A stretch of 64,000 bases of DNA from Patescibacteria group bacterium (lineage in GTDB: Bacteria; Patescibacteriota; Microgenomatia; UBA1400; UBA1449): assembly GCA_050942955.1 (NCBI GenBank), contig JBMNOG010000005.1, forward strand, positions 307 through 64,306. Reading direction: 5' to 3'. A program made the translations under genes and the position numbers. The stretch's first letter is position 1, and every line of letters starts with the position of its first letter. This document shows, piece by piece, positions 43,880 to 59,336 of the stretch. The notes beneath the pieces were generated by a model, which was not told the origin of the DNA, ran no database searches, and saw nothing but the letters and a program-made list of their open reading frames with translations.

Positions 43880-45190
43880 TTATTTCCTCCAAAGTTCTGC
43901 TTTCCCTGGGGGTAGTGAAGATGAAGAGGTTAGTTTGTGAACTAATCCTGTTTGTGAAGGGAAAATAAACTCTAAAGATTGGTCTTTTTTTGAGAAGTTT
44001 AAAGCAATGCGGTATCTATCATTGCTGAAAGTTAGAATGTTATTGCAGACAGCAATTTTCTCCAATTTTGATACATTGCGATCTATTTGTTTGTGCAAAT
44101 TAAAAAGTTTCCGTATTGTAGTGGGCACAACGTTTTTTATTTCAAGATACTTACTATCTAAAGGTTCAAACCAATGGTGGGCTAAACGATGAACTAATCC
44201 TTGGAATGTGCCGTTGTAAATAAAAGGGATATCAGGAATAAATAAGATCAGAGCAAGCAGAGCTTCAAGGTACTGATGGCTTAGTTTATGTAGAGAGGGG
44301 GTTGTTGTTTTGTTGTCAAAAGGAGGATCATCATGATTAAAAAAGTAGTTAACTTTTAACCCTGGTTGGTTTTCATGTAAGCTTTCAAGGTATGCTTTTA
44401 GGAATTCTATTGGTTGGTTTTCAAAAACAACTTTTTTTGTGTTTTCAAATAAGCCATTATTGTAGATGGCATCAAAGCCAGCAGAATAGAGGTTATGAAT
44501 ATTCTGATAGTCAAATAAAGAAACAGGATAGGCTTCAGCGATAAATGCAAAATCAGGATTATGGTTTTTTACAGTTTCTATTGCTTTCTTCCAGAAAAAA
44601 TCAGGGACCAAGTGGGCCATATCGCAGCGGACTCCATCAACTCCCAGTTTAGCTATCCAGAGTAAAACCTTAACCATCTCATCTTGGAGGTTGGGATTCT
44701 CATAGTTGAGCTTAAGCACATCACCGCTGAACTCGGCGGTTAGTCGATCATTATTTTTTACATAGTAGTCCGGGTGATTTTTAACCCAGGGATGAACGAT
44801 AGATGTATGGTTGGGGACAAAATCAACGATTGCAAAACCTCCTAGTTCATGAAGATGCTCAACCAATGCAATAAACTCTTCTTGAGTGCCTAAGTTCTGA
44901 TTTAGCTGCTTGTGATTAGATATAGCAAAAATTGAAGGAACTCTTGGATATTGGGAGGGGGGTAAACTTTTCCCGTTTTCCTCCATAACAATGATCGGTC
45001 CGGAGTTATCAAAAATGCCTAAAAAGTAGAAGGTGTTAAGACCAAGATCAAGAAGTTTACTCCAGTCTCTTTTGGAAAGTTCATTGAAAGTGTCATTATA
45101 AATAATCTTATTAGCGGATATTTTGGCTTCCCATCTTCCGGTAAATATCTGATAAATAACCGCTTTTTTAAGCCAGGCAGGAGGAGTCAT
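43880..45190 (-). CDS. GH13-family alpha-amylase/alpha-glucanotransferase
   Basis: FAIVDFVPNHTS (region I), GVDGVRCDMAHLV (region II, nucleophile Asp), FAFIAEAY (region III, acid/base Glu) and FFNHDDP (region IV). Confidence 0.75.
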   Translation of the reverse strand: MTPPAWLKKAVIYQIFTGRWEAKISANKIIYNDTFNELSKRDWSKLLDLGLNTFYFLGIFDNSGPIIVMEENGKSLPPSQYPRVPSIFAISNHKQLNQNLGTQEEFIALVEHLHELGGFAIVDFVPNHTSIVHPWVKNHPDYYVKNNDRLTAEFSGDVLKLNYENPNLQDEMVKVLLWIAKLGVDGVRCDMAHLVPDFFWKKAIETVKNHNPDFAFIAEAYPVSLFDYQNIHNLYSAGFDAIYNNGLFENTKKVVFENQPIEFLKAYLESLHENQPGLKVNYFFNHDDPPFDNKTTTPSLHKLSHQYLEALLALILFIPDIPFIYNGTFQGLVHRLAHHWFEPLDSKYLEIKNVVPTTIRKLFNLHKQIDRNVSKLEKIAVCNNILTFSNDRYRIALNFSKKDQSLEFIFPSQTGLVHKLTSSSSLPPGKAELWRK

Positions 45191-45260: not shown

Positions 45261-47630
45261 TTGCTTGAACGTATGAAAAAAAACACAAAACCTACTTCAA
45301 AAGTCAGAAAGTCTACTAAAACTCGCCAGTCTTCCAATAAAAACAAAGTAAAATCTGCATCAAAGTCTTTAGTAAAAGCTGTAGTTACTAAGAAAACCAC
45401 TTCTAAACCCTCACTTATTAAGAGTAGTAAAACAGAAAAGCTGTTAAATTGTTACATTCCAAAAGTAGCTTGGTACGGTGCTTTAGTCTTAGGATTTGTT
45501 TTTTTTCTACTTTATCTTTTTACAGCTCCTAAAACAAACGTTGCTTACACTGATTCTGATCTCTTCCTAACAGTTGCCTATAAACTAGGACTTGCAGAAC
45601 CACCGGGTGTACCTTTATATATGGTGCTGCTTCATTTTTTTCTTAATCTCCCCATCCCGGGATCAATCGCTTTCAGGGGTCATTTTCTAAGCACCCTTCT
45701 GCATACAGGCTCTTTAGTTATTGTGTTTGTATCAGTATGGAGGTTAATTCAGTTTCTTCAAAACAACAACAATGCAAAACTAATAATAGTTTCAAAGCAA
45801 GTTGATAGGTGGTTAGTTAGTGGTATAGCTACAGCTTCCCTAGGATCTTCATACCTGTTTTGGCAGTACGGAATTGTAGCTGAAAAATATGCCTTTATTG
45901 ATCTTTTAGTTGCTGCTGTGATTGGTATTGGAGTTTATGTGGCTACTACTGCTAAATCAAAAACAAATCTTTCTTACTGGTATGCCCTTGCCGGTTTAAT
46001 TGGGATCTTAGTTATTCATCATCCAATCTCTTTTGTTTTACTGCCTTTTGTCGCAATTTTAGTTTGGTTGAAAAAAGATATCTTTTCGAGAAAACAATAT
46101 ATGGGAATGGTGTTATCACTGTTAGTTTCTATAAGTATTAGCATAGGTGTTTTACTTGGATTAAATGCCTTAGAAAGAGAAATTAACTGGAACTTTAAGC
46201 CAACTGTTAAAGAAACAATAGACTATGTGTTTACCCAGGGTTTTAGTCGTAGTATTGCTGAAAACTTTGAAGAATACTCAGCCTTTGCTCAGATTAGCAG
46301 TGGCTCAGTTTTTAAGTCCTTAATGCAGTTTGGTAAAGTGTTTGTACAGCACTTTGGTTTGGGATCAGTCGCGCTTTTAGTGGTAGGAATTGCCTTTTTA
46401 TACTCCTCTTCAAAAAAAATGAGTTTAGTAATTCTAAGCGGCTGGACAACCGTAGGGCTGTTACTACCAGTGTTTCTGAAATGGCCAGAGAGCATGAGTT
46501 TTCAGGCTTTACGGGTACGTGACTACCTTATGGGGTACATGTTTACTCCTTTACTTGTAGGTTTGGGGGGTTGGATGGTGCTGGCGCGGTTTAATAAAGC
46601 TCTTAAAATACTTTTGCAAAACAACCGTGTTTCAACAGGGGTTACTCTTGTTGTTCCTGCGCTCATTTTAATCGTATCTATTGTAAATACTTTTAAACAC
46701 GTAAATTTACGTAACTTTACAGTATTTAGCCGTTTTCATGAATCGGTTCTTGAAAACCTTCCTCATGATGCGCTGATTGGATGTTTTACGGATACGACTT
46801 GCTCAGCTCTTTTGTATGAACAAGAGGTTAAAGGTGTAAGAAAAGATGTAATTATTGTTTCTCCTTCGCACCAGTTAATACAGAAAAAGCTTAACAGTAT
46901 TGATAACCTCAAAGGTTTTGATTACACGAATAATACCTGGTTGGTGCATGACTACTTGACTTGGAATATCGGTAAAAGGCCGGTGTATGTTATTGATCTA
47001 CCTAAAACCTATTACAACCTTCTCGGTTTAACCTACGGATTTACGTACTACATTCCAAATGGGTATGTAGGTGAATTGACTCGTGAAGTTCCAGAGGTAA
47101 CTCCATCTGTCAAGTATTCTTTTTCCGAAGAGATCGAAAACATGAATGTTCCCTCAAAAGACTTAATGCGGACTTGGCTTAAAACCTCATACGCACAGCT
47201 CCATTACTTTAATGCCGTCATGTATCTAAAAATGGATTACAGGAGCTTGGCGCGGTCAGAGTTGAATACTTTTTCTAACATTCTCCATCAAGTAGAAGCT
47301 ATTTCTAATAAAGAGATAGAAGATTCTCGGAGCTATGTTGAAGGTTCTCATCCATTAGTCAATTTTTCGCCTGGATCTGAAGTACAGCCTCTTAGCGAGA
47401 TTATGAACGGAGTTAACGCGTATTTAAATGATGGGAAACTACAGAGAGCATATACAGGTGCACTGGGGATTATTACAATTGATCCGCTCAATGAAGAAGG
47501 TCGGCTGAAACTGGCTGAGATTTATGAAAAAATGGGTAATACCCAAATGGCAAAAGTGGAGTATCAGCACGTGCTCAAGTATTACCCAAGTAACACTCAA
47601 GCTCAAACTAAACTTGCAGAGCTTAAATAG
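45261..47630 (+). CDS. DUF2723/TMEM260-like GT-C glycosyltransferase with C-terminal TPR repeats (paralog 1)
   Basis: Basic Ser/Lys-rich N-terminus. Multi-TM domain with YTDSDLFLTVAYKLGLAEPPGVPLYMVL. TPR repeats at the C-terminus. Confidence 0.55.
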   Translation: MLERMKKNTKPTSKVRKSTKTRQSSNKNKVKSASKSLVKAVVTKKTTSKPSLIKSSKTEKLLNCYIPKVAWYGALVLGFVFFLLYLFTAPKTNVAYTDSDLFLTVAYKLGLAEPPGVPLYMVLLHFFLNLPIPGSIAFRGHFLSTLLHTGSLVIVFVSVWRLIQFLQNNNNAKLIIVSKQVDRWLVSGIATASLGSSYLFWQYGIVAEKYAFIDLLVAAVIGIGVYVATTAKSKTNLSYWYALAGLIGILVIHHPISFVLLPFVAILVWLKKDIFSRKQYMGMVLSLLVSISISIGVLLGLNALEREINWNFKPTVKETIDYVFTQGFSRSIAENFEEYSAFAQISSGSVFKSLMQFGKVFVQHFGLGSVALLVVGIAFLYSSSKKMSLVILSGWTTVGLLLPVFLKWPESMSFQALRVRDYLMGYMFTPLLVGLGGWMVLARFNKALKILLQNNRVSTGVTLVVPALILIVSIVNTFKHVNLRNFTVFSRFHESVLENLPHDALIGCFTDTTCSALLYEQEVKGVRKDVIIVSPSHQLIQKKLNSIDNLKGFDYTNNTWLVHDYLTWNIGKRPVYVIDLPKTYYNLLGLTYGFTYYIPNGYVGELTREVPEVTPSVKYSFSEEIENMNVPSKDLMRTWLKTSYAQLHYFNAVMYLKMDYRSLARSELNTFSNILHQVEAISNKEIEDSRSYVEGSHPLVNFSPGSEVQPLSEIMNGVNAYLNDGKLQRAYTGALGIITIDPLNEEGRLKLAEIYEKMGNTQMAKVEYQHVLKYYPSNTQAQTKLAELK

Positions 47631-47635
47631 CTGCC

Positions 47636-49885
47636 ATGAAGTTAACTAACAGTAAGTTTAAAGTTATCGGTGCTTTTGTAGTATGTTTACTTTCCTTTGC
47701 TCTTTATACATACAGTGCGGCTAGGACAAACCCTGGATATGCGGATTCAGATGAGCTCATTACTGCTGGTTATCTCCTAGGTTCAGCTCACCCTCCAGGG
47801 TATCCTCTTCAGATAGTTCTAGTTAAACTGTTTACCCTGCTTCCTGTTCCCGGAACAGTGGCATTTAAAGCTAATCTTCTCGCCGCTTTTCTGCAGAGTT
47901 TGACTGTAGTTTTCACCTATCTTACCGGTTTGGAAATATTGCTATTATTAACTTCCAGAAAAAAACTCAAAAAAGAAAAAGACGAAAAGCTTGCAAACGT
48001 TACTATTTTACATACTGTAGTTTCAGCTGGTGGGGCTCTACTACTGGCTCTTTCGGCGCTTTTCTGGCTTTACAGCTCAGTAATTGAAGTAATGTCCTTG
48101 AATAACTTCCTGGCAGCTTTAGCAGTCTGGTGCGGCTTTCAGTGGAAAAAGAACTATAAAAAAACAAAACAAAAGCAGGATATTCCTTGGTTTTTAGCAA
48201 CCTGTTTCGTAGTAGGTTTAGGGCTGTCTCATGTTCATACTTTTGTCCTGCTACTTCCTGGATTTGCCTTTCTGCTTTTTATAACCATATATAAAAAGGG
48301 TAACTGCCAGAAGGAGATAGCAGAGAGAGGGCTATATATTCTAGGCGCAGTTTTACTCGGATTTTTGTCACCTAACCTTTTGCTTTTTTGGTTGAATACT
48401 AGAAAAGCAAAAGTCAGTTGGTACTTCCCTCAGAGCTTACAGGGATGGATTAATCACATTAGTAGAAGAGTGTACTCAGGGTATTTAGTGGAAAACAGCA
48501 GTGAAGTTAGTGCTTACCTGGCCAAGTTTAACCTTAGCCAATACGTAAAAACCTTCCCTTTATATTGGCAGTTTTTAGGTTCTCATTTTGTCTATGTTGG
48601 ATTGGTCCTTGGACTAGTGGGAGTTGTTTGGCTAGCCAGAAAACACAGAGAGTTGCTAATGGTATTGGGTACACTTTACCTTTTTCCAGGTCTACTACTG
48701 GCTCTTTACATGGGAATGCCGGACAAATCTCCGGTAGAGAATCTGGAGTATCGAAGCATTGTAGGAGTTTCCCAAAGGCAAATGCTATTGGGTGAAACTA
48801 TGTGGGGACTTCTAGTTATTGTAGGTTTGTGGGGAGTAGTTACCTTACTTCATCACTTCATAAAAAATAAAATTGTAGCTCTCTTTTTAGGAGTTTCATT
48901 CTTAGTGCTTACGTTAGGCTTATCTTTTTGGCAGAACCGGACAATGGGAGTGCAAAGAAACAACACTATTGCCTGGGACTATGCCAAAGAAGTCTTAAGC
49001 AAAGCTGAAGAAAACTCTGTTCTTATTTGTTTTGCTGACTTTTCTTGCTTCTCTTTGTTTTATATGCAGGAAGTTGAGGGTTTTCGTCCTGATGTAGCTG
49101 TCCTTAGCAAAAATGCATACCTTAAAAAGAATTACTTGGAAAAGAACCCTCATCTTAAAGGTTTTGATTATATTGATAATCCTTACTTTGTGGCTGATTT
49201 AATTACCTGGAATGTTAGCCAAAGAACGACATACCTTACAGACACCTCAGGTTTTTACTCTAAATACCTTGGTTTTGAAGGTGATCCGTTTTATTTGGTT
49301 CCGGAAGGATATCTCTACCGAGTAACTACAAAACTGCCTCAAAAAGTGTCTGATAATGACTATACTCTTACACAAAAACTGTTGCACTTATCGAAATCAG
49401 AAAAAGATTACTGGATAAATGGGTTGCAGGATTACTTTGCCAACTTCCATACTATTAGTGGTACCATTTTTAGCTACTTAAATGAAAAAGAAGAAGCAAG
49501 GGAAAACTTTAGATTAGCAACTGAACTTTCGCCAGACTATGCTTTAGCTCAAACACTTCAAGATAGTCTCTCCGGATATTTTGGCAATCCTAACTATGAA
49601 TTAGGTCAAGAAAGTTCTAGTTCGGCAGAGTTTTTACAAAGTGGCCTTGAGAAAATTGAACAGGGAGAAATCGAAGCTGCTTATAAAGATATTCAAAAAG
49701 CTACATTTCTTGATCCTCTTAATAAGGATGCGAGACTTAAGTTGATGGAACTGTACGAACTGGGAGGATATTACCGTGAAGCTGTCATGGAATGCCGTAA
49801 TATTCTCAAGTATTATCCAGAGGAGCCAGGAGTAGTTGAAGAATTAAAACAACTTGAAAATGCAATTAAAACTGAGATTAATTGA
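47636..49885 (+). CDS. DUF2723/TMEM260-like GT-C glycosyltransferase with C-terminal TPR repeats (paralog 2)
   Basis: YADSDELITAGYLLGSAHPPGYPLQIVL motif with the same architecture. Starts 5 nt after paralog 1. Confidence 0.55.
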   Translation: MKLTNSKFKVIGAFVVCLLSFALYTYSAARTNPGYADSDELITAGYLLGSAHPPGYPLQIVLVKLFTLLPVPGTVAFKANLLAAFLQSLTVVFTYLTGLEILLLLTSRKKLKKEKDEKLANVTILHTVVSAGGALLLALSALFWLYSSVIEVMSLNNFLAALAVWCGFQWKKNYKKTKQKQDIPWFLATCFVVGLGLSHVHTFVLLLPGFAFLLFITIYKKGNCQKEIAERGLYILGAVLLGFLSPNLLLFWLNTRKAKVSWYFPQSLQGWINHISRRVYSGYLVENSSEVSAYLAKFNLSQYVKTFPLYWQFLGSHFVYVGLVLGLVGVVWLARKHRELLMVLGTLYLFPGLLLALYMGMPDKSPVENLEYRSIVGVSQRQMLLGETMWGLLVIVGLWGVVTLLHHFIKNKIVALFLGVSFLVLTLGLSFWQNRTMGVQRNNTIAWDYAKEVLSKAEENSVLICFADFSCFSLFYMQEVEGFRPDVAVLSKNAYLKKNYLEKNPHLKGFDYIDNPYFVADLITWNVSQRTTYLTDTSGFYSKYLGFEGDPFYLVPEGYLYRVTTKLPQKVSDNDYTLTQKLLHLSKSEKDYWINGLQDYFANFHTISGTIFSYLNEKEEARENFRLATELSPDYALAQTLQDSLSGYFGNPNYELGQESSSSAEFLQSGLEKIEQGEIEAAYKDIQKATFLDPLNKDARLKLMELYELGGYYREAVMECRNILKYYPEEPGVVEELKQLENAIKTEIN

Positions 49886-50996
49886 TTACCGGTGTCTCAG
49901 TTTGAATAATAACCTCATTATACTTTTCAACGACAATTTTTTTGTTGCCTTTAAAATCGCTTAACCATAAACGTTTAAACTGAGCTGGTCCGTCGGGAAC
50001 GATTTCCTCAATGAGAAATTGGTTTTCAGACCAGGGGATGGAGCGGGGCTTGTTAAGTTCTGAAGCAATAGTTATTGGAGTACGTGCTACCTCTTTTCGT
50101 TGATAGTAATCGAAAACATGCCAGTATCCCTTTTTGCTTAAAACAAAAATTTTATCGTTAATACATTTCACAGATAGAATAGCATTATCTTCATTCAAGG
50201 AAACAATAGTTTCCGGGTTTTCAGGATTGATAACGGTGTAAAGCTCAAGTGTACTATTGTTAATAGTAACCACTCCAGTAGAGTCAGGTGCCCAAAAAAC
50301 ATAGTTTCTGTCTGCTAGATTAGTTTTGGTGGAGAACTGATGAGATGATCTCCCTCCTTTTGTAGTAAACATGAATTTGGGTTTATCAGTTGTTTGTCCG
50401 TATCCTGAAACGAACAGAATCATACTCCCATTAGGTGAAAGTTTAAAGACGTTACCGTAAGGGTAAGGGATGGGAGCTTGAATCACAGTTCCATTTGCCA
50501 GGTTATGATGGTACAGAGTATTTCCTTCATCTGTGATAAACATAACAACATTTGAGTTAGGAGAGAAATCTAAGTATGGATTGGTGTTAAGGAAACTATT
50601 TGGAGGGTAAATACTGTAAATTTCTTGTGATTTAATACTTAAAGCCATTACACCTTTAATAGGAGTGTACCAAACGACCCATTGCTTAGTTGGACTTATA
50701 ATAAAGCTCTCTATTTCGGGTGCTGGGGGTTGTTCTTCACTTTTGAAAGCATAGATAGCAAGAGGTCTGGCAAACTCAGGGTCAACAAGGTAAAGGGAGT
50801 TATTATTTGCAAACGCAACTAAACTATTTCCCTGAAGGATATCATCTATAGAGATTGGACTATTTTCTACTGGGTTTTCAGGACCTTTTGAACTTAGTTG
50901 AAACTGAGAAAAATCAATCTTTGGGGAACAGGCTGTTAAAAAGAGTCCTAAAAGGCAGAAAAGAACTAGGTAAATACCATACTTAATTGATCCCAT
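49878..50996 (-). CDS. Secreted lipoprotein, probable beta-propeller (TolB/WD40-like) fold
   Basis: Lipobox LFLTAC. Repetitive beta-strand-rich sequence. Confidence 0.4.
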   Translation of the reverse strand: MGSIKYGIYLVLFCLLGLFLTACSPKIDFSQFQLSSKGPENPVENSPISIDDILQGNSLVAFANNNSLYLVDPEFARPLAIYAFKSEEQPPAPEIESFIISPTKQWVVWYTPIKGVMALSIKSQEIYSIYPPNSFLNTNPYLDFSPNSNVVMFITDEGNTLYHHNLANGTVIQAPIPYPYGNVFKLSPNGSMILFVSGYGQTTDKPKFMFTTKGGRSSHQFSTKTNLADRNYVFWAPDSTGVVTINNSTLELYTVINPENPETIVSLNEDNAILSVKCINDKIFVLSKKGYWHVFDYYQRKEVARTPITIASELNKPRSIPWSENQFLIEEIVPDGPAQFKRLWLSDFKGNKKIVVEKYNEVIIQTETPVIN

Positions 50997-51052: not shown

Positions 51053-52474
51053 TTACTTCTGCTCTTTAACTTGCTTAACTTTGTCAGTGTTGATTTCATC
51101 TAAAATACTGCTAACAGATTCACTAAATTCTGCCTCAAATCTTTCTTTGCCTTCTTTTTCTTTTATTATTTCCATCTTGCTTTCTAGTGCTGCCAACTCT
51201 CCTGATATTACTTCCTGAATATAACGCACTTTAAGCTTATTGCTTCGCGAGTTCATGACCATCTTCCAGATGATGATAGTAAGCAGCATAAGGAAAGTGA
51301 GAGTAGAGATGAAGTTAATAAGAACAACAGTCTTATCGGCTCTAGATTTACCCGGAATGAGCAGATCTCTTAAACTCTGAACAGACATAACTTCTCCAGC
51401 CTCCCCTGGTTCCATGGGGTATGATTCAGGAATTTCAAACGGGGTGGCATTGGGTCTTGGAGTGAGGTTAATTGGTGCTGGTACTGTATTATCTTCTTCT
51501 ACCACTTCAAGTTCACTAGTTCCCGATGTGCTCGTTTTTTTTGTGCCACCGCTACTTTTAAAGTTATCAGTAACGTCAACTACATTGACATCGTCAAATA
51601 GAGTAGTTTGGTTAACAATAGGAGTTGGGTTCGGGTTGGCTGAGGCTGTGGCTGTAGGGGTAACTGTGGGTGTAGGTGTTGGCGTTGGTGTTGGTGTAGC
51701 TGTAGGCTCTGATGAAGAAGTTGGAGTAGCTGAGGGAGTAGGGCTAGGAGAGGGTGTGGGTGTAGCAACTGTTTCTCCTTGAATACTAATATTAAATATC
51801 GGTTGTGTTCCGGGTGTTTTAATTTGTCCATTATAAAGTAGGATAATATCTGAAAAAGTCATGGAGGTATTGCCTGGAGCATATGGTTTTATGACAAAAG
51901 TAGCAATCTTACCGTCTCCGTTAAATCCATCTGTGCCTCCGACCCCTGCAGTAAAGATGATTTTATGGTTGTAGGCGTAAGGTGTAGAAGTGCTGTAATC
52001 TTTTCCTGGTGGAACAGAGTTTGCAGGGGTGAAAAAGGGGAAAACAGTCCCATTTTTATTAATTCTTGCCGTTATCCAGCCCGCCCAGTAGCCATTAATG
52101 TCAGACTGGAAGTAATCAGGAGAATAGTTAACAACCACCTGCATTGTACCTATTTGTTGGCTGCAAGTATTGAGCCGTAATTCCACTGTTGATTCTGTCC
52201 CTGCAGTGAATCCCGTACTGGAGCTTAAGTAGAAAAATGGAGCATTTCCTTGTTCCTCGCAGGTGTAAGCGTATACGCTAGGAGTAAGAATTCCAAAAAA
52301 AAGGAAAGAAATAATCAGTAGTAGAAAAAACCTAACTAGCTTAGAATTCATAGTCTGCCTAAAATTATGCCTGGTTGAGAAACATTTTTCAATGAAGAAG
52401 TTTAAATACATCAAGAGTGTCTGTCTACTAGGCTTTTCTTTTTCTAATAAGCCACAAGATTGTGTTAACTGCAA
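51053..52474 (-). CDS. Surface protein: cohesin-like domain, PT-rich linker, TM anchor, cytoplasmic coiled-coil tail (probable true start at MNSKLVRFF, ~52351)
   Basis: Signal peptide after Met-42. Cohesin-like segment ATFVIKPYAPGNTSMTFSD. A (TPTPSP)n linker. TM segment LTFLMLLTIIIWKMVM. Confidence 0.45.
   Translation of the reverse strand: MQLTQSCGLLEKEKPSRQTLLMYLNFFIEKCFSTRHNFRQTMNSKLVRFFLLLIISFLFFGILTPSVYAYTCEEQGNAPFFYLSSSTGFTAGTESTVELRLNTCSQQIGTMQVVVNYSPDYFQSDINGYWAGWITARINKNGTVFPFFTPANSVPPGKDYSTSTPYAYNHKIIFTAGVGGTDGFNGDGKIATFVIKPYAPGNTSMTFSDIILLYNGQIKTPGTQPIFNISIQGETVATPTPSPSPTPSATPTSSSEPTATPTPTPTPTPTVTPTATASANPNPTPIVNQTTLFDDVNVVDVTDNFKSSGGTKKTSTSGTSELEVVEEDNTVPAPINLTPRPNATPFEIPESYPMEPGEAGEVMSVQSLRDLLIPGKSRADKTVVLINFISTLTFLMLLTIIIWKMVMNSRSNKLKVRYIQEVISGELAALESKMEIIKEKEGKERFEAEFSESVSSILDEINTDKVKQVKEQK
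51610..51770 (-). repeat. Pro/Thr-linker codon repeat (GGTGTTGGCGTTGGTGTTGGTGTAGC on the + strand)
   Basis: Short tandem units encoding (TPTPSP)n. They produce a spurious GVGVGV ORF on the plus strand. Confidence 0.55.
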
Positions 52475-53162
52475 AGATACATCCCAATGTACCGATAGTG
52501 GTTATAAATACCCAGTTAGTTGGTGTTTGAGTGATGGTTTTTGAACTAGATACAGAAGAATCGCCATCATAAAAAGGAATAGCAGGTGCAAAAGTAGAGT
52601 TAGTTTCAAACTGGGGTGGAGGAGTGCCATCAGGTTCTCCGATTTTCATCCTAAAACTATCCATAGCTCCCGGCTTGATAATTGTGCCCAAAAACTGAAA
52701 ACTGGGATAGACAAAGGAAATTGCAGTATATCCCTTCTGTTTTGCTTTTAAGGAGAAAATTGCTATTAGACCTTCATCGTCATCATATGCTTTTGATTCA
52801 GGAAAACTGCAGGCAAAGATAAGTTTAGAACCGTAGTAGTAAGGGGTAGTCCTTTCAAAATTTTCACCGGGAGGGATTGAGACGGCCGGCTTCCATGAGG
52901 AACAAACTGAATTTTGAACATTAAGAGCATGAAAGTCCCAGTACTCCTCATCAAACTGAATAGCAATTTGCACTGTTTCCAGTTGGCTGCCATCACTGTT
53001 TAAGAATAACTTGAAAATGCCAACATCACCTTCGTTATAGTACTCTTCGCCAGTAAGGTAAAAAAAAGGATTTGCGGTAACTACGGAAGGATGCGCTAAT
53101 ACACAAAAAGAAAGAATGATTGTAATAGAAAAACTTCGGATTAATAGTCTCAATCTAATCAT
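52428..53162 (-). CDS. Cohesin-like domain protein with a C-terminal TM anchor (paralog)
   Basis: PFFYL...TPYYYGSKLIFA...IAIFSLKAKQKGYTAISFV parallels the neighbouring gene. C-terminal TM followed by RKRKA. Confidence 0.45.
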   Translation of the reverse strand: MIRLRLLIRSFSITIILSFCVLAHPSVVTANPFFYLTGEEYYNEGDVGIFKLFLNSDGSQLETVQIAIQFDEEYWDFHALNVQNSVCSSWKPAVSIPPGENFERTTPYYYGSKLIFACSFPESKAYDDDEGLIAIFSLKAKQKGYTAISFVYPSFQFLGTIIKPGAMDSFRMKIGEPDGTPPPQFETNSTFAPAIPFYDGDSSVSSSKTITQTPTNWVFITTIGTLGCIFAVNTILWLIRKRKA

Positions 53163-53232
53163 ACCTTCAACGTATCTTAGAATTATGACGATTTAGACTG
53201 GAATTTGCAATAAACGGAAGTTTTAAAAATAT

Positions 53233-53778
53233 TCAGATGTGGTTGACGATCATCACGGTTTGTTCAGAGGGTTGTGAAAAAATGTTGGTTCCCTTGCCGT
53301 CATTTAAAAGGATCAAGCTGTTTTCACTAATCTTTATTTTAGTTTCTCCGACCGTTTTTGCCATAAAAGTGATTTCAGCAATAGTGTTTTGCCCTTTAAA
53401 ACCCGGACTGGGAGATCCGCACTCAATAGAAATTGTTCCTTTTGTATCGTTAAATTTATTAACAGGATAAAACTGGCAAAAAGATTTTGAAGTATCCACA
53501 TTCACAATGGAAAGTTTGTCAGGATCGAATGATACAAAAAGAGCCACCGCGTTTGCAGCTTGATTATCGCTATCAGCTATAATTTGTGCTTTGAACATAG
53601 TACTAACTAAAACTTCCCTATCGGCTTCAATATAAAATGCACCATTTCCTTGTGTTTTTTTACCCAGCACTAGTTTTCCAAAAAAATTTTGGCTTATTAA
53701 AATATAGCTTAAGGAAATGAGAGCAATTAAAGCAAAAGAGGCTAAAACTACCCAGTAGAATAGTTCTTTTCGTTTCAT
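53233..53778 (-). CDS. N-terminally anchored cohesin-like domain protein
   Basis: N-terminal TM. Segment NTIAEITFMAKTVGETKIKISENSLILLNDGKG resembles cohesin beta-sandwich strands 8 and 9. Confidence 0.45.
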   Translation of the reverse strand: MKRKELFYWVVLASFALIALISLSYILISQNFFGKLVLGKKTQGNGAFYIEADREVLVSTMFKAQIIADSDNQAANAVALFVSFDPDKLSIVNVDTSKSFCQFYPVNKFNDTKGTISIECGSPSPGFKGQNTIAEITFMAKTVGETKIKISENSLILLNDGKGTNIFSQPSEQTVMIVNHI

Positions 53779-53779
53779 T

Positions 53780-55474
53780 TTAAATGAATTCTAGAGAGCT
53801 CAATATAACATCTATTCTCTTTGCATCATCCTCTGAGAGAGTAGGACTGAAGGTAGCATACCAAATATCAAAAATATAGTCATTGTGTTTGACTAGATAT
53901 TTATCTCCAGGATACTCGGAAAAGTCTTCAAGCTCCAAAAACAATGCCTCTTTATTTTTAAATGTAGTCTCTTTAACCTTGTAGTTTAAACTGCTGGCCT
54001 TTATTAGTTTCCAGTATTCTTTAACTTCTAGGGCAGTCTCAGCGACTTGAATCTTAAAAATGTACCCTGTCTTTCGGATGAAAGTGATACTACTGTCAGT
54101 TTTAATAACATTCACCGCATTTTTGGGATAGTTTAACTGTATACCGATAGTGCCATCCTTAATAGTATCCCACTGGGTTTCGGCAAAAGGCACATTAGCT
54201 TGTGATTCTGCATACTTCTCGTCACTTACCCCTTTAGTTTGAGGTTGAGATTGCGTTTGAGTCTCAGGAGGAGTGGTTGGCTGAGAAGATTCGTTTATTT
54301 TTTTTCCCAACTCTGCTTGTTCTGTTACTGGTTGAGCGTCAGGGGGCAGATATTCTTGGAGTAGTGTTGTATCTACTTCCGTATTGCGGTTGAGAGTCAT
54401 CCATACAACTCCACCAATAATTGAAACTAAAAGTATTGTTGAACCTAGAACTACAAGAGGTTTAGGGATCTTCGAAAAGAACCCTTTTTTTTCATTTTTT
54501 TCAGGTTGGGTTGGGGTTTGCTTAGTTGATGGTTGGTTTTGGGCCAATTTATCCTGGACGGGAACTGACTGTGCTGGTTGCTCTTGAGTTAGCCTAGATT
54601 GCTCTGATTGAGTAGTGGTCGCTTGTTCAGGTTTTTGCTCCTCTGGTTTGGCTGCTGGTTGAGTCTGAGGTTGAGATTCTTGTGGAGAGGTATTAGTTTC
54701 GGTTGATGTACTTACTTGAGTATTAGTTTGAGATGCTTCCGGTTGGACAGGCGCAGGTGAAGCAGATACTGGTGCCGGCTGGTTTACGGGAGTAGTCACT
54801 GCAATCTTTTCGCTCTCAATTAGTTGATTCATGGCTTGAACTACTTCCTGAAGCTCTTTAGAAATGGTGAAAAACTTATTCTTGGTGATAGGCTCACTGC
54901 GATGCATGTCTTTTCGTAAGCTCTTGATGGTACTCTCCAGTTTCTTCTTCTCGTCAGTAAAAGAATCCTTCATCTCTTCAAGTTCTTTTTTAAGACGGCT
55001 TTCTTTTTTTGAAGAATGTTCTATTTTCTTTTCGATGAGTGAAAGTTTCTCATTCACATCGTGATTTACAAAATCCGGCTTATTGTCTACTTCTGCTTCT
55101 TGTTCAACTATGCTTTTTGGTAGTGAAAATTCCTCTGATAAGCTAGTCTCTGAAGCTGGAAGTTCGGTCTCAGAAACTGGCGACAAAGTGGAGTTATGCT
55201 TTTGAGAAACTTTTTCTATCTGTTTAATAGATTCAAGCTTTTCTAACTGAGTTTTTATCTTCTGATCCAATTCCTCTTTCAATCTTTGAGCTTGTTTAAT
55301 TTTCTCTTCAAGCTCGTTGAGCTCAGGAGCGTCCTGTTTTAAGGGTGGATTAGACTTAGAAGAGGAGATAGGCGAATAAGATTCCTGGGATTGCTTCAGA
55401 CGTTTAATTGGTCTGTAAAATCCAGGTTTTGACCGGCCTGCGGAACTAGTAAGATACTTCTTTGTTCTTGCCAT
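53780..55474 (-). CDS. Large coiled-coil / PQT-rich protein with a central TM segment (hypothetical)
   Basis: N-terminal coiled coils, a Gln/Pro/Thr-rich region, a TM (VVLGSTILLVSIIGGVVWM) and a C-terminal globular domain. Confidence 0.45.
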   Translation of the reverse strand: MARTKKYLTSSAGRSKPGFYRPIKRLKQSQESYSPISSSKSNPPLKQDAPELNELEEKIKQAQRLKEELDQKIKTQLEKLESIKQIEKVSQKHNSTLSPVSETELPASETSLSEEFSLPKSIVEQEAEVDNKPDFVNHDVNEKLSLIEKKIEHSSKKESRLKKELEEMKDSFTDEKKKLESTIKSLRKDMHRSEPITKNKFFTISKELQEVVQAMNQLIESEKIAVTTPVNQPAPVSASPAPVQPEASQTNTQVSTSTETNTSPQESQPQTQPAAKPEEQKPEQATTTQSEQSRLTQEQPAQSVPVQDKLAQNQPSTKQTPTQPEKNEKKGFFSKIPKPLVVLGSTILLVSIIGGVVWMTLNRNTEVDTTLLQEYLPPDAQPVTEQAELGKKINESSQPTTPPETQTQSQPQTKGVSDEKYAESQANVPFAETQWDTIKDGTIGIQLNYPKNAVNVIKTDSSITFIRKTGYIFKIQVAETALEVKEYWKLIKASSLNYKVKETTFKNKEALFLELEDFSEYPGDKYLVKHNDYIFDIWYATFSPTLSEDDAKRIDVILSSLEFI

Positions 55475-55556: not shown

Positions 55557-56801
55557 CTATGTTCCCCAGTAGTACATCATAATGCTGAAGTCGATTAGGT
55601 TGACAGTCCCGTCGCTATTAATATCCGCTGAAGCACTGGTAGTTCCCCAGTAGTACATGAGAATACTGAAGTCAGTGAGGTTAGTGTGAGAATCACAGTT
55701 CAAATCTCCTTGAGAAATACCACAGCCTGGAGGTGAAGGAGTGGGTCCGGAACTGGGTAAAACTGAAAATTGCAAGGAGTTACTAAAAAGACTTTGGGAA
55801 CCTGTACCATTTTGGACTAAGCTATAGATTCGGTAGTCTCCCGGTATATACTCACTTGTGTTGTCTATAGTGTAATCCCAATTTCCAGAAGTATCTGCAG
55901 TAGCGTAGTAGGTTCTGAGAGGAGATTCAGTAAAAATACTCAAGTCTCCTGAAATAATTGTTGAACCGCTAACAATAAGCGGGTCACCTTGAGTAACTTC
56001 GGTTGCATCAATTTCAATCGTTGGCGAAAGCAGAAGGTCAGATACAGTAGTCTGTTGATAAATTGGAGTTTGAACTTCAATAGGAAGGATGGATGTAGTT
56101 CGATTGTCTAGATCAACTCCGTACATAGTGATATTATGAGTTCCGGGATCAAGTCCAAGCAGTAGTTTGGTAAAGGTACCAAGTAGGCCTGCAGTTTCTG
56201 TTCCGATCACAGTACCGTTTTCTGTAAAAGTGATAAATGTTCCGGGTGCAGAATACCCTGAAATGAGTAGAGAAGCTGTAGCCGGAGCAATAGATGCAGA
56301 TACAGTGACTGATCCACCCCATCCTGTAGCGAGGAATGAAGTAATGTTTTTAATAATCAGCCCTTCAGCATCTTCAGTGACACTTACCTGAACCTGGTAA
56401 AGGTTTTGAGAGTCTGGGTTAGTAGCTGTTATACCTGAGATGGTAATTCTATTACCTCTTAGAACAGCTATCCCGGTGACTTTTATCGTGTTTCCTTCCT
56501 GACTAAACTCAGGATTTCCGAGATAACTTCCTGTTACTTGTCCGTTAACAAGTGTAACGTCGGTAAAATGTGGTAAATCTATGTGAATGTAGTCAGATGA
56601 ACTGATAATTTCAGAATCCAAAGGCAAAGTAAAACTGACCATGTGAGAAACGTTAGGCAAACTAGTTTGGTCGTGGCTAATAACATCCTGTCCATCAAGT
56701 AAATAGCCTGAGGCATGAGCTAAGGGGGTAAAAATTAGGCTGACTAAGGGAAAAATACAAAGAAGGCCAAAATAATAGCGAGCAGTATGAGGCATAAGCA
56801 A
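55557..56801 (-). CDS. Secreted Ig-like repeat protein with a C-terminal type-I dockerin module
   Basis: Signal peptide. The C-terminus has two 22-aa Ca-binding repeats, GDLNCDSHTNLTDFSILMYYWG and ADINSDGTVNLIDFSIMMYYWG, each fitting DxNxDxxxNxxD. Confidence 0.6.
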   Translation of the reverse strand: MLMPHTARYYFGLLCIFPLVSLIFTPLAHASGYLLDGQDVISHDQTSLPNVSHMVSFTLPLDSEIISSSDYIHIDLPHFTDVTLVNGQVTGSYLGNPEFSQEGNTIKVTGIAVLRGNRITISGITATNPDSQNLYQVQVSVTEDAEGLIIKNITSFLATGWGGSVTVSASIAPATASLLISGYSAPGTFITFTENGTVIGTETAGLLGTFTKLLLGLDPGTHNITMYGVDLDNRTTSILPIEVQTPIYQQTTVSDLLLSPTIEIDATEVTQGDPLIVSGSTIISGDLSIFTESPLRTYYATADTSGNWDYTIDNTSEYIPGDYRIYSLVQNGTGSQSLFSNSLQFSVLPSSGPTPSPPGCGISQGDLNCDSHTNLTDFSILMYYWGTTSASADINSDGTVNLIDFSIMMYYWGT

Positions 56802-56871: not shown

Positions 56872-57819
56872 TTAACCCTTAAACATTACTTTCAGGACTT
56901 TAGCCAAGCGTTTTCGGCCGACAACCAGAGTCAAAACAAAACCCACGATTGCTACTGCCGCAACAAACCCTAAGATGAGTACCATTTTTGGAATGACTGT
57001 AAACTTAGTTGCAGCAGTTAACGGCAATTTATTTTGTCCGTACGTAGCTATTAGAGTTGCGGTAAAGACACCCATTACGTTTGCCTGATCCCATGTAGTC
57101 TCCATTTTCCGAATAGCCCCTGGAAGAACATTTCTGCCTTCAAGTGGAATTTCAGCTACTTTTTTACCGAAAATGTTGGTAATAACAATGGTACCTTGAG
57201 GAATAATGTGAGTATTACTCTCATTTTTAACCCTGGCTAAAAGTTTTACGGGCCCCTTTTCCAGATATTTAGGTGCAGAAAAATCTTCAAGTATTGCCTT
57301 TTCAACTACGTTTCCTGAAACTCTGAGCAGCACCAATGTACCCACTCTTTGTGCCACTTTGGCTCCTCCCGGCACATCTGTATCAGCACCTGTCTGGAAA
57401 AGGATTGAAGCGTAGTGTCCTCCAGGTTCACCATTCCGGGGAATATTAATCATGAAATTAAATGCCTGTTCTTCCTTAGGCTGGAGGATTATGTCTCGAG
57501 TTGATGGCTCAATCCATTTTGCTAACGAATACGATGCATCAGATTCTCCCTCTTCCAACACCACATGTCCTTCTTCCCCGCTTGTGGTAAAGTCTTCAAC
57601 GAGGATACTATACGTCATTGGTTCATCTGACTCATTTCTCACTCTGATTTTTTCTGAAATGGTGTCTCCGGGATTACCAAATAACTCAAACTTAGGTGGA
57701 ATAACAGTAAGTGCACTGCTATTCTGAGCCTGAGCAGGAGAGCTTACTAGTATGGCAGTGAGCAGAAAGGAGATAAGGGCGAGGGGCAGCTTATGAGATG
57801 AGGAGCTTAAGAGTTTCAT
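56872..57819 (-). CDS. Cell-surface protein with signal peptide and C-terminal TM plus basic tail (DUF916/DUF3324-like architecture)
   Basis: Signal peptide ending AQAQ. ~270-aa ectodomain. TM LILGFVAAVAIVGFVLTLVV followed by GRKRLAK. Confidence 0.4.
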   Translation of the reverse strand: MKLLSSSSHKLPLALISFLLTAILVSSPAQAQNSSALTVIPPKFELFGNPGDTISEKIRVRNESDEPMTYSILVEDFTTSGEEGHVVLEEGESDASYSLAKWIEPSTRDIILQPKEEQAFNFMINIPRNGEPGGHYASILFQTGADTDVPGGAKVAQRVGTLVLLRVSGNVVEKAILEDFSAPKYLEKGPVKLLARVKNESNTHIIPQGTIVITNIFGKKVAEIPLEGRNVLPGAIRKMETTWDQANVMGVFTATLIATYGQNKLPLTAATKFTVIPKMVLILGFVAAVAIVGFVLTLVVGRKRLAKVLKVMFKG

Positions 57820-57917: not shown

Positions 57918-59336
57918 TTAGAAACTTCTTCCAGCGATTTGTTGATACAGGCTGTAGTAGTTCTTTGCCGACTGCTTCCATGAAAAATCTTTCTTCATGC
58001 ACTGTGTTTGTATATAGATGAGTTTATCTTTGCTGTCAATAGCTGCCCAGGCTTTATGAAGAGCAGTGCAAAATGCTTGAGTGCTATAGTCTGAAAACAA
58101 AAACCCATTTTCTCCTTCAGAAACCGTATCTGCCAACCCACCGGTTTTACGGACTACCGGGATTGTTCCATAGCGCATGGCAATCATCTGGACTAACCCA
58201 CAGGGTTCGTACTTTGAGGGCATAATGATTACTTCGCTGGCAGCGTACAATTTGTGGGCAAGAACAGGATCAAACTTGCAAACGGCAACCACATTAGGAT
58301 TTTGAACACTAATATTTATAATTTCATCCTCAAGCCATTGGTCTCCGGTCCCCAAAAAAGCAAACTGACGTTTTGCTGTACCTAAAGTGCCATTCTTTAG
58401 AGCTTCCAGAATTAATTCTACTCCTTTTTGTTTTCCATCCACTCTGCCAATATAGCTAACCAGAGTTGCTTGGGGATTTGTAGGTAGTCCTAACTCTTTT
58501 TGAACCAGGGCTTTATTTTGTTTTTTACCTTCTAAAGCAGTTTTGGGAGAGTATGGAATAATATGAGGGTCAGTTTCTGGGTTCCAGATATTGTAATCAA
58601 TGCCGTTAAGAATACCTGAAAGTTTCCCTGAAAGAGAATTAATTACCGGGTCCAGAAAAGCCCCGTACTCAGGAGTCAGAATCTCTTTGGCGTACGTTGG
58701 GCTAACTGTATTAACATAATCAGCATGAATAATACCTTCCATTAAAAGATTAACATCACCGTTTTCTGTGTCCCACTTCAGAATTGGACAAGAAGAAAGG
58801 TTAATCCCTGTTTTTTGGATAACAGTCTGAGGCGCAACACCTTGAAAGTTTAGGTTATGGATAGTTAACAATGATTTATATCCGTTACTGTTGTACAAGT
58901 GTCTGAAAATTGCAGGAACTAAAGCTGTATGCCAATCGTTGAGATGAATAAGTGTTGGTTGCCAGGGTTCCTGTTTTTCTCGAAGCCAGGTACATAAAGC
59001 AAGAGAGAAAAATACGAATTTATCAATTGAGTCATCGGCTACCCCGGATGGTTGGGACAGATATGTATTATTTGCAAATAGGTAAAGGGGAAGGGTAGTG
59101 TCGGGGACCGTAGCTCTCCAAACTGTCACCAGTTCCGGTTTGGCATCAAAAATTACAAGAATTTCTTCTTCTTTGCGCCAATGCTTTTGAGGGGTAATGG
59201 CACTATGAAAGGGGAGAGCAATGCGGATATCAGCACCTTCATGCTGCAGGGCTAAGGGCAGGCTGTGTGCAACATCTCCTAAACCACCCAGCTGATACAC
59301 TGTGGCTAGTTCTGAAACACCAAATAAGACATTCAT
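57918..59336 (-). CDS. glgA: Glycogen (starch) synthase, GT5 family
   Basis: N-terminal VYQLGGLGDV (KTGGL motif). C-terminal VRKTGGLADTV. Confidence 0.85.
   Translation of the reverse strand: MNVLFGVSELATVYQLGGLGDVAHSLPLALQHEGADIRIALPFHSAITPQKHWRKEEEILVIFDAKPELVTVWRATVPDTTLPLYLFANNTYLSQPSGVADDSIDKFVFFSLALCTWLREKQEPWQPTLIHLNDWHTALVPAIFRHLYNSNGYKSLLTIHNLNFQGVAPQTVIQKTGINLSSCPILKWDTENGDVNLLMEGIIHADYVNTVSPTYAKEILTPEYGAFLDPVINSLSGKLSGILNGIDYNIWNPETDPHIIPYSPKTALEGKKQNKALVQKELGLPTNPQATLVSYIGRVDGKQKGVELILEALKNGTLGTAKRQFAFLGTGDQWLEDEIINISVQNPNVVAVCKFDPVLAHKLYAASEVIIMPSKYEPCGLVQMIAMRYGTIPVVRKTGGLADTVSEGENGFLFSDYSTQAFCTALHKAWAAIDSKDKLIYIQTQCMKKDFSWKQSAKNYYSLYQQIAGRSF

Follow-up and report, generated by a model that had tools for sequence, protein, structure and literature searches.

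A dockerin gene and a set of predicted membrane-anchored cohesin-like proteins in a conserved gene block of Patescibacteria

Three consecutive minus-strand genes, here called A, B and C, occupy positions 51053-53778 of a 64-kb window, the whole stretch of DNA analysed (64,000 nucleotides; positions 307 to 64,306 of contig JBMNOG010000005.1, assembly GCA_050942955.1), from a metagenome-assembled genome of an ultra-small bacterium of the Patescibacteria (Microgenomates/Beckwithbacteria type). Each encodes a predicted membrane protein with one cohesin-like module, and two genes upstream of C lies a gene for a predicted secreted protein that ends in a dockerin, an arrangement conserved in related genomes. 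Cohesin-dockerin pairs are best known from cellulosomes. We consider it probable that the modules described here hold the dockerin protein at the cell surface, in a system unrelated to cellulose digestion.

Predicted fold and relatedness of the three modules

Folds were assessed with AlphaFold2 models of B and C, which were compared with the PDB by Foldseek. The model of C, with a predicted local distance difference test score (pLDDT) of 90.0, matched cohesin modules at all of ranks 1-20 (2jh2_A at E 7e-12; 2vo8 at a target-normalised TM-score of 0.81), including modules from Clostridium acetobutylicum, C. cellulolyticum, Acetivibrio cellulolyticus and Archaeoglobus, and the next classes (collagen adhesin, integrin, complement and CARDB) were about 5 orders of magnitude weaker. 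The overall pLDDT of the B model was 78.5, with most 10-residue blocks of the domain above 90 and a drop to 69-86 at an inserted loop and neighbouring stretches. Ranks 1-10 were again all cohesins (2jh2_A at E 3e-7; 2vo8 at a TM-score of 0.77), and CARDB, the next fold class, followed at 5e-4, about 1000-fold weaker. The predicted fold is thus a beta-sandwich (jelly roll) of ~140 residues with nine main strands, nearest to solved cohesins.

At the sequence level, the Pfam Cohesin model (PF00963) scored C at 23.7 bits (E 6e-5), slightly short of the gathering cut-off of 24.1 bits. The same model matched 14 of the 27 members of the C family (E<=0.01, best 8e-8) and 2 of the 33 members of the A family (best 3.7e-6). 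No NCBIfam model matched A, B or C.

Judged by their alignments, A and B are clear paralogues (BLASTP E 5e-22, 30% identity across 223 residues) and C is a remote homologue of both. BLASTP alone gave no significant similarity between C and either A or B (E 0.03-0.13). Profile comparisons were more sensitive: hhalign aligned a profile of A, B and P0002, a close homologue of B, with the 27-member C-family profile over 114 columns (92.9% probability, E 3.7e-7), and a hidden Markov model (HMM) trained on 32 proteins of the A family, none of them C-type, matched C of the window at E 3.7e-13 (42.9 bits). When this HMM was run over 243 six-frame pieces of open reading frames (ORFs) from the window, the next unrelated piece reached E 0.022, and no further cohesin-like ORF was detected in the 64 kb. 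In five other genomes, too, the A and C families match each other reciprocally.

These results agree with the first-pass annotation of the window, which had proposed from the letters and ORF translations that the three genes carry cohesin-like modules related to one another: the predicted folds of B and C lie closest to cohesins, and mutual similarity is significant at the profile level. Its sequence landmarks fared unevenly. The strand pair is common to A, B and C, whereas PFFYL and TPY.Y..K[IL]IF are confined to A and B. C has GAFYI at the PFFYL position and lacks the whole TPY-containing insertion, a stretch of ~25 residues (PA.S.PPG....TPY.Y) present in A and B, so that two of the three landmarks are specific to A and B. 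These two are best described from their alignments as a divergent cohesin-like subfamily with a ~25-residue inserted loop.

Two cysteines, in the contexts ...C..[FW]... and ...CG..PG[FY], show almost no variation across the A family or the C family. A of the window has lost both, with F and A in their places, and has two other cysteines further upstream, in YTCEE and NTCSQ. The joint loss suggests that the conserved pair forms a disulfide, and A of the window may use an alternative one.

The dockerin protein

The gene at 55557-56801 (minus strand), two genes upstream of C, encodes 414 residues with a signal-like N-terminus, Ig-like or beta-sandwich regions with weak Ig-like and BslA-like matches, and no anchor of its own. 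Its last residues, 365-414 (DNA 55560-55709), match Pfam Dockerin_1 (PF00404) at 30.5 bits, against a cut-off of 22.9, and resemble cellulosomal dockerins in the PDB (2yik_A, E 1.6e-5). The two repeats, DLNCDSHTNLTD followed by FSILMYYWGT and DINSDGTVNLID followed by FSIMMYYWGT, are nearly identical to each other, and both carry the calcium-ligand pattern D1-N3-D5-N9-D12. An HMM match combined with two calcium-ligand repeats of ~22 residues, each followed by a helix, identifies this region as a type I dockerin. Near-identity of the repeats of a type I dockerin would permit binding in either orientation.

Both calcium-loop patterns and a cysteine pair are kept in 10 orthologues, in which the dockerin region, by eye, varies far less than the stretch that immediately precedes it, implying a conserved partner. 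Over the whole protein, orthologues in a separate nine-sequence alignment are 49-61% identical to the window protein. No second dockerin motif was found anywhere in the 64-kb window. The organism thus encodes a dockerin-bearing protein of its own, in conserved linkage with the modules, and the earlier suggestion that the latter serve as cell-surface receptors gains from the presence of this gene in conserved synteny.

Gene order across relatives

Gene order was followed from both partners. The survey based on A took one genome per species and yielded 13 loci, among them Patescibacteria UBA1449, Candidatus Beckwithbacteria and Microgenomates RBG_16_45_19; loci from an exact-protein look-up were added, and all were compared by tblastn. 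A conserved block emerged, which runs from genes for a 240-residue protein and a 315-residue WxLIP-like protein through the dockerin gene, a gene for a 564-residue protein, C and A to a gene for a 372-residue lipoprotein, and is followed by two convergent genes for TMEM260-like GT-C glycosyltransferases. Wherever a locus offers enough sequence, C is the gene directly upstream of A. This C-A pair is the recurring core, with the lipoprotein and the TMEM260-like pair after it in most loci. The dockerin gene was found upstream in 10 loci, corresponding to nine species genomes and one JGI metagenome contig.

The survey based on the dockerin protein comprised 80 metagenome loci, of which 66 had at least 700 bp of sequence downstream; a gene was called cohesin-like when the C or A profile matched it at E<=1e-5. 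A cohesin-like ORF starts within 3 kb downstream of the dockerin gene, on the same strand, in 51 of these 66 loci, with a median gap of 4 bp. Most of the loci without one are short contigs that end inside a gene like that for the 564-residue protein. Upstream of the dockerin gene, a cohesin-like gene was present in 2 of 44 loci.

A distant locus, L041, combines a WxLIP-like protein, a dockerin protein (33.2 bits) and two proteins composed of a signal peptide, a cohesin module (Pfam Cohesin 20.9 and 26.9 bits), an Ig-like region and a transmembrane segment. On this 500-kb contig, duplicated gene pairs stand on both sides of the dockerin and cohesin genes (5725-6801/6850-7875 and 11379-12470/12665-13516), each encoding a secreted protein of ~360 residues without Pfam match and a WxLIP-like membrane protein. 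The gene content suggests a larger modular surface locus.

A separate B-like gene was found only in the window and in its closest relative, L001, and for this reason B can be regarded as a recent, lineage-specific extra copy of the A-type module. A word-indexed homologue search with B across 5.8 billion sequences returned a single close homologue other than itself, P0002. In L001 (10876-13333), the homologues of A and of the 372-residue protein are split into short called genes in different frames; they are probably assembly frameshift errors rather than pseudogenes.

Ten cluster-bearing contigs of metagenome-assembled genomes (L009, L011-L016, L018-L020) are titled "uncultured Pseudomonadales" or "Gammaproteobacteria bacterium". 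They are syntenic with the Beckwithbacteria and Microgenomates loci, and their record taxonomy looks wrong or like a placeholder.

Architecture and topology of A, B and C

The span consists of three consecutive ORFs, at 51053-52474, 52428-53162 and 53233-53778. The first, as listed, reaches a TTG at 52474, and a shorter form begins at the ATG at 52351. Since both the family alignment and an exact match to the NCBI protein MGI5827884.1 point to the latter, it is most likely the start of gene A, which then extends over 51053-52351 and encodes 432 residues (NCBI: hypothetical protein ACOX6V_02560). Gene B (52428-53162; 244 residues) is likewise a hypothetical protein at NCBI, and gene C (53233-53778; 181 residues) is recorded there as a cohesin domain-containing protein.

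Topology was called from Kyte-Doolittle hydropathy. Protein A comprises, in order, a signal peptide (an N-terminal signal-like segment), the divergent cohesin-like module, a linker rich in Pro, Thr and Ser (PT linker), a conserved stalk with a juxtamembrane motif, a transmembrane segment and a tail. The module covers about residues 37-192 (51776-52243), as delimited by alignments, BLASTP to B and the A-family HMM. The linker (residues ~195-245, 51617-51769, from the translation) is a candidate O-glycosylation stalk. The transmembrane segment (residues 343-361) is followed by a predicted cytoplasmic tail of 71 residues, charged and helical; together they correspond to 51056-51325. Protein B has an N-terminal signal-like segment read as a signal peptide, a module at residues 31-175 (52638-53072), a short linker and a C-terminal transmembrane segment at 218-236, with RKRKA directly after it. 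Sortase anchoring of B was considered and rejected, as no LPXTG-like motif precedes this segment. Protein C has a single N-terminal transmembrane segment at residues 10-28, where the AlphaFold model places a helix at 3-29, and its module spans residues 46-178 (53245-53643).

On balance, A, B and C are read as membrane-tethered cohesin-fold modules that would lie outside the cytoplasm, because a signal peptide or anchor precedes each module and positively charged residues follow the C-terminal transmembrane segments. Hydropathy thus reproduces the anchoring proposed by the first-pass annotation, with one protein (C) held at its N-terminus and two (A and B) at their C-termini; the PT linker and cytoplasmic tail that it had assigned to one of the three belong to A.

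A 6-bp tandem repeat at 51637-51706 underlies the PT region of A. Opposite the PT linker, a 122-residue antisense ORF (51414-51782, plus strand) consists mostly of GVGVGV repeats; we rejected it as a gene and regard it as a mirror-image artefact of repetitive codons. A 375-residue protein, P0031, equals A apart from T121I and two in-frame stalk deletions, one of 30 residues in the PT linker and one of 27 residues. These deletions reflect either stalk-length polymorphism between populations or an artefact of assembly or gene calling.

The A family came to light only through an exhaustive profile search of 1.84 billion representative sequences, which placed 68 proteins in it at E<=1e-3, 30 of them at E<=1e-10, and most have 340-430 residues and the same architecture as A. 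The stretch from stalk to tail (residues ~280-400, about 51150-51510) is very strongly conserved across the family and matches no known family. It begins with D..IP.PP..L.PRP, then GEVLSVQSLRELLIPGKS.ADKTVVLINLISTL, and continues into the transmembrane segment. The motif ahead of the membrane, GEV.SVQSLR(D/E)LLIPGKS.ADKTVVLIN, is found family-wide, with nearly invariant columns in the alignments. The transmembrane segment contains an invariant Asn, and the tail carries the motif GEL..LE.K.

Neighbouring genes

Between the dockerin gene and C, the gene at 53780-55474 (minus strand) encodes the 564-residue protein, bitopic with a transmembrane segment at 340-358 by hydropathy. Its N-terminal half is predicted to be cytoplasmic, Lys/Glu-rich and coiled-coil-like, with a long low-complexity region rich in P, Q and T, and its C-terminus forms a domain of ~200 residues predicted to lie outside the cytoplasm. 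Neither Pfam nor the other family scan gave a match. Orthologues hold the same position in L001-L003, L008-L013, L015, L017, L018 and L020. Its place between these two genes is conserved within the clade of the window; distant loci lack it, and there the dockerin and cohesin genes adjoin each other.

The dockerin gene is immediately preceded, in loci from both genomes and metagenomes, by the gene for the 315-residue protein (56872-57819, minus strand), of WxLIP/DUF916 type with a C-terminal transmembrane segment, similar to CscA (Pfam WxLIP_PGBD 28.6 bits, cut-off 27.3). Downstream of A, the 372-residue predicted lipoprotein (49878-50996, minus strand) has an LTAC lipobox and weak matches to DPPIV_N and to TolB (beta-propeller-like), and its orthologues directly follow A in most loci.

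Convergent with the block, two tandem plus-strand genes (45261-47630 and 47636-49885) encode TMEM260-like (DUF2723) GT-C glycosyltransferases with TPR tails (Pfam 2e-34 and 1e-19). The pair keeps its place beside the block in L002-L005, L008-L010, L012-L018 and L020. Human TMEM260 O-mannosylates Ig-like IPT domains (PMC10214176), and the bacterial enzymes may glycosylate the PT-rich or Ig-like surface proteins of the cluster. The cluster is flanked by genes for an alpha-amylase-family protein (43880-45190), a starch/glycogen synthase of family GT5 (57918-59336) and pyruvate phosphate dikinase (60086-62401). Amylase genes adjoin the TMEM260-like pair in L002 and L004 as well.

Proposed assembly and alternative explanations

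We propose that the genes for the WxLIP-like protein, the dockerin-bearing Ig-like protein, the 564-residue bitopic protein, C, B where present, A and the lipoprotein form an operon. A scan for promoters and terminators found 19 sites against 18.5 expected, which is chance level, so the operon is drawn from spacing and synteny only. The 414-residue protein would be secreted by way of its signal peptide and, being anchorless, would be caught at the cell surface when its dockerin, in the presence of Ca2+, binds at least one cohesin module. C would be held in the membrane by its N-terminal signal anchor, whereas A and B would be exported by a signal peptide and kept by the C-terminal transmembrane helix. 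The product would be a non-cellulosomal surface complex, probably structural or adhesive, since a cargo without catalytic domain makes such a role more likely than a degradative one. The adjacent TMEM260-like enzymes are plausible candidates for O-glycosylation of the PT stalk or of the beta-sandwich domains.

Several results weigh against such a tethering role. A and B on their own gave no match to Pfam Cohesin at E<=1, and phmmer and hmmsearch searches of PDB sequences with C, B and the C-family profile returned no cohesin, so that Pfam and the predicted folds are what connects the modules with solved cohesins. The ~25-residue insertion and the cysteine pair fall outside the part matched by the Pfam model and could alter the binding face. 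Conservation of the transmembrane segment and cytoplasmic tail of A is, on the family alignment, beyond what a passive anchor needs. Finally, five loci (L002, L004, L006, L017 and L019) have the C-A pair but, within the 5-10 kb examined, lack a dockerin gene, and the pair may therefore have a role independent of an adjacent dockerin.

The last two points would suit an arrangement in which the modules are not dockerin receptors at all: C and A would form, with the 564-residue protein and the 372-residue lipoprotein, a heteromeric envelope complex that serves as a scaffold or as a signalling or anchoring device coupling outside and inside, and the dockerin protein would be an occasional accessory. 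C and A are universally adjacent and have opposite membrane orientations, the nearly invariant juxtamembrane, transmembrane and tail sequences of A, including the Asn within the membrane, would be superfluous for a simple tether, and the 564-residue protein contributes a long cytoplasmic half that resembles a coiled coil. An accessory partner is harder to reconcile with the 51 of 66 metagenome loci in which a cohesin-like gene follows the dockerin gene, the ORFs usually overlapping or nearly abutting, and with a dockerin region so little varied among orthologues. We therefore regard this arrangement as possible but rather unlikely as a replacement for dockerin binding; the two readings are not mutually exclusive. 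A different view takes the cohesin fold as a generic scaffold and the modules as adhesins, or as beta-sandwiches that bind glycans, in direct contact with a host cell or polymer; the cluster would then be a host-attachment locus of an episymbiont. All cluster proteins are indeed predicted to be surface-exposed, non-enzymatic beta-sandwich proteins, the weaker fold matches include a collagen-binding adhesin and CARDB domains, and starch- and glycogen-related genes are nearby. However, the E-values of cohesins were better than those of any other fold class by 3-5 orders of magnitude, neither Pfam nor the further family scans revealed a carbohydrate-binding module (CBM) or lectin family, and the linkage of dockerin and cohesin genes is better accounted for by a protein-protein pair. 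Direct adhesion by the modules is thus improbable.

The least probable reading, to which we give hardly any weight, is a miniature cellulosome in which enzymes that degrade polysaccharides are arranged by a scaffold on the cell surface. The window does have cohesin and dockerin signatures, and an alpha-amylase gene lies ~6 kb away, but A, B and C contain one cohesin module each, unlike a multi-cohesin scaffoldin, and the sole dockerin of the 64-kb window belongs to a protein with neither a catalytic nor a carbohydrate-binding domain. The amylase and the other enzymes scanned in the window lack a dockerin, and no CBM or glycoside hydrolase occurs among the cluster genes. Single modules and a non-enzymatic dockerin cargo led us to reject a cellulosome.

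Tethering of the dockerin protein by the modules could also be one part of a wider device. The seven genes of the window and the two flanking TMEM260-like O-glycosyltransferases might together specify a lineage-wide, undescribed surface organelle of Microgenomates-type Patescibacteria, in which a cohesin-dockerin joint would couple a glycosylated external adhesin to the cell interior through the transmembrane segment and tail of A and the coiled-coil protein. This extension is speculative and we hold it to be unlikely. If true, it would represent a host-attachment or envelope-organising device of ultra-small episymbiotic bacteria, and cohesin-dockerin would be a general module of surface assembly, ancient in origin, and not an invention of the cellulosome.

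Comparison with known systems

The fold and the cohesin-dockerin principle are already known, and C had a cohesin annotation beforehand. Neither the divergent A/B subfamily nor the conserved operon seems to have been described before: literature searches combining cohesin or dockerin with candidate phyla radiation (CPR), Patescibacteria or Microgenomates returned no description of such a cluster. The "hypothetical" proteins A and B gain a fold and a family, and a compact, conserved and experimentally tractable cohesin-dockerin operon is defined in Patescibacteria, which bears on how these cells build their surface and attach to hosts. The conserved gene order also supplies a specific binding partner and a candidate set of substrates for bacterial TMEM260-like O-mannosyltransferases.

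Cellulosomal type I pairs, such as CohA2-Doc0917 of C. acetobutylicum (6kgc-6kgf), those of C. cellulolyticum (2vn5/2vn6, 1g1k) and ScaB/ScaC of A. cellulolyticus (4uyp, 5nrm), belong to the same fold class, and sequence identity between the window modules and solved cohesins is 10-19%. Like type I dockerins, the window dockerin is built of two repeats of 22 residues, nearly identical and with EF-hand-like calcium ligands. Unlike these systems, the window contains no multi-cohesin scaffoldin, dockerin-bearing enzymes or CBM, and anchoring would rely on transmembrane helices instead of SLH domains or sortase.

The Csc/WxL loci of Lactobacillales combine CscA, a DUF916/WxLIP membrane protein, with WxL proteins, which are thought to assemble non-covalently. 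The 315-residue protein shares the WxLIP_PGBD domain and the C-terminal transmembrane segment of CscA, and the block resembles these loci as an operon of several surface proteins that may assemble non-covalently. No WxL domain was matched in 18 scanned neighbouring proteins and no LPXTG protein was found among the scanned neighbours, which separates the block from a Csc/WxL locus proper; assembly would use cohesin-dockerin rather than WxL contacts.

The best structural matches of the B and C models are non-cellulosomal cohesins, such as those of C. perfringens GH84C/GH33 (2jh2, 2w1n, 2vo8) and of Archaeoglobus fulgidus (2xdh). Non-cellulosomal cohesin modules were reportedly surveyed by Peer et al. 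in 2009 (FEMS Microbiol Lett 291:1). Like them, the window modules are single, lie outside any cellulosome and have a dockerin encoded in the same genome. In contrast to them, each window module is, within its small bitopic membrane protein, the only folded ectodomain, and both orientations occur; A and B carry the ~25-residue insertion and fail the Pfam model, and the family has a conserved cysteine pair. The window dockerin is likewise distinguished by its non-enzymatic cargo, and the operon is fixed, with genes for a WxLIP-like protein and for GT-C glycosyltransferases.

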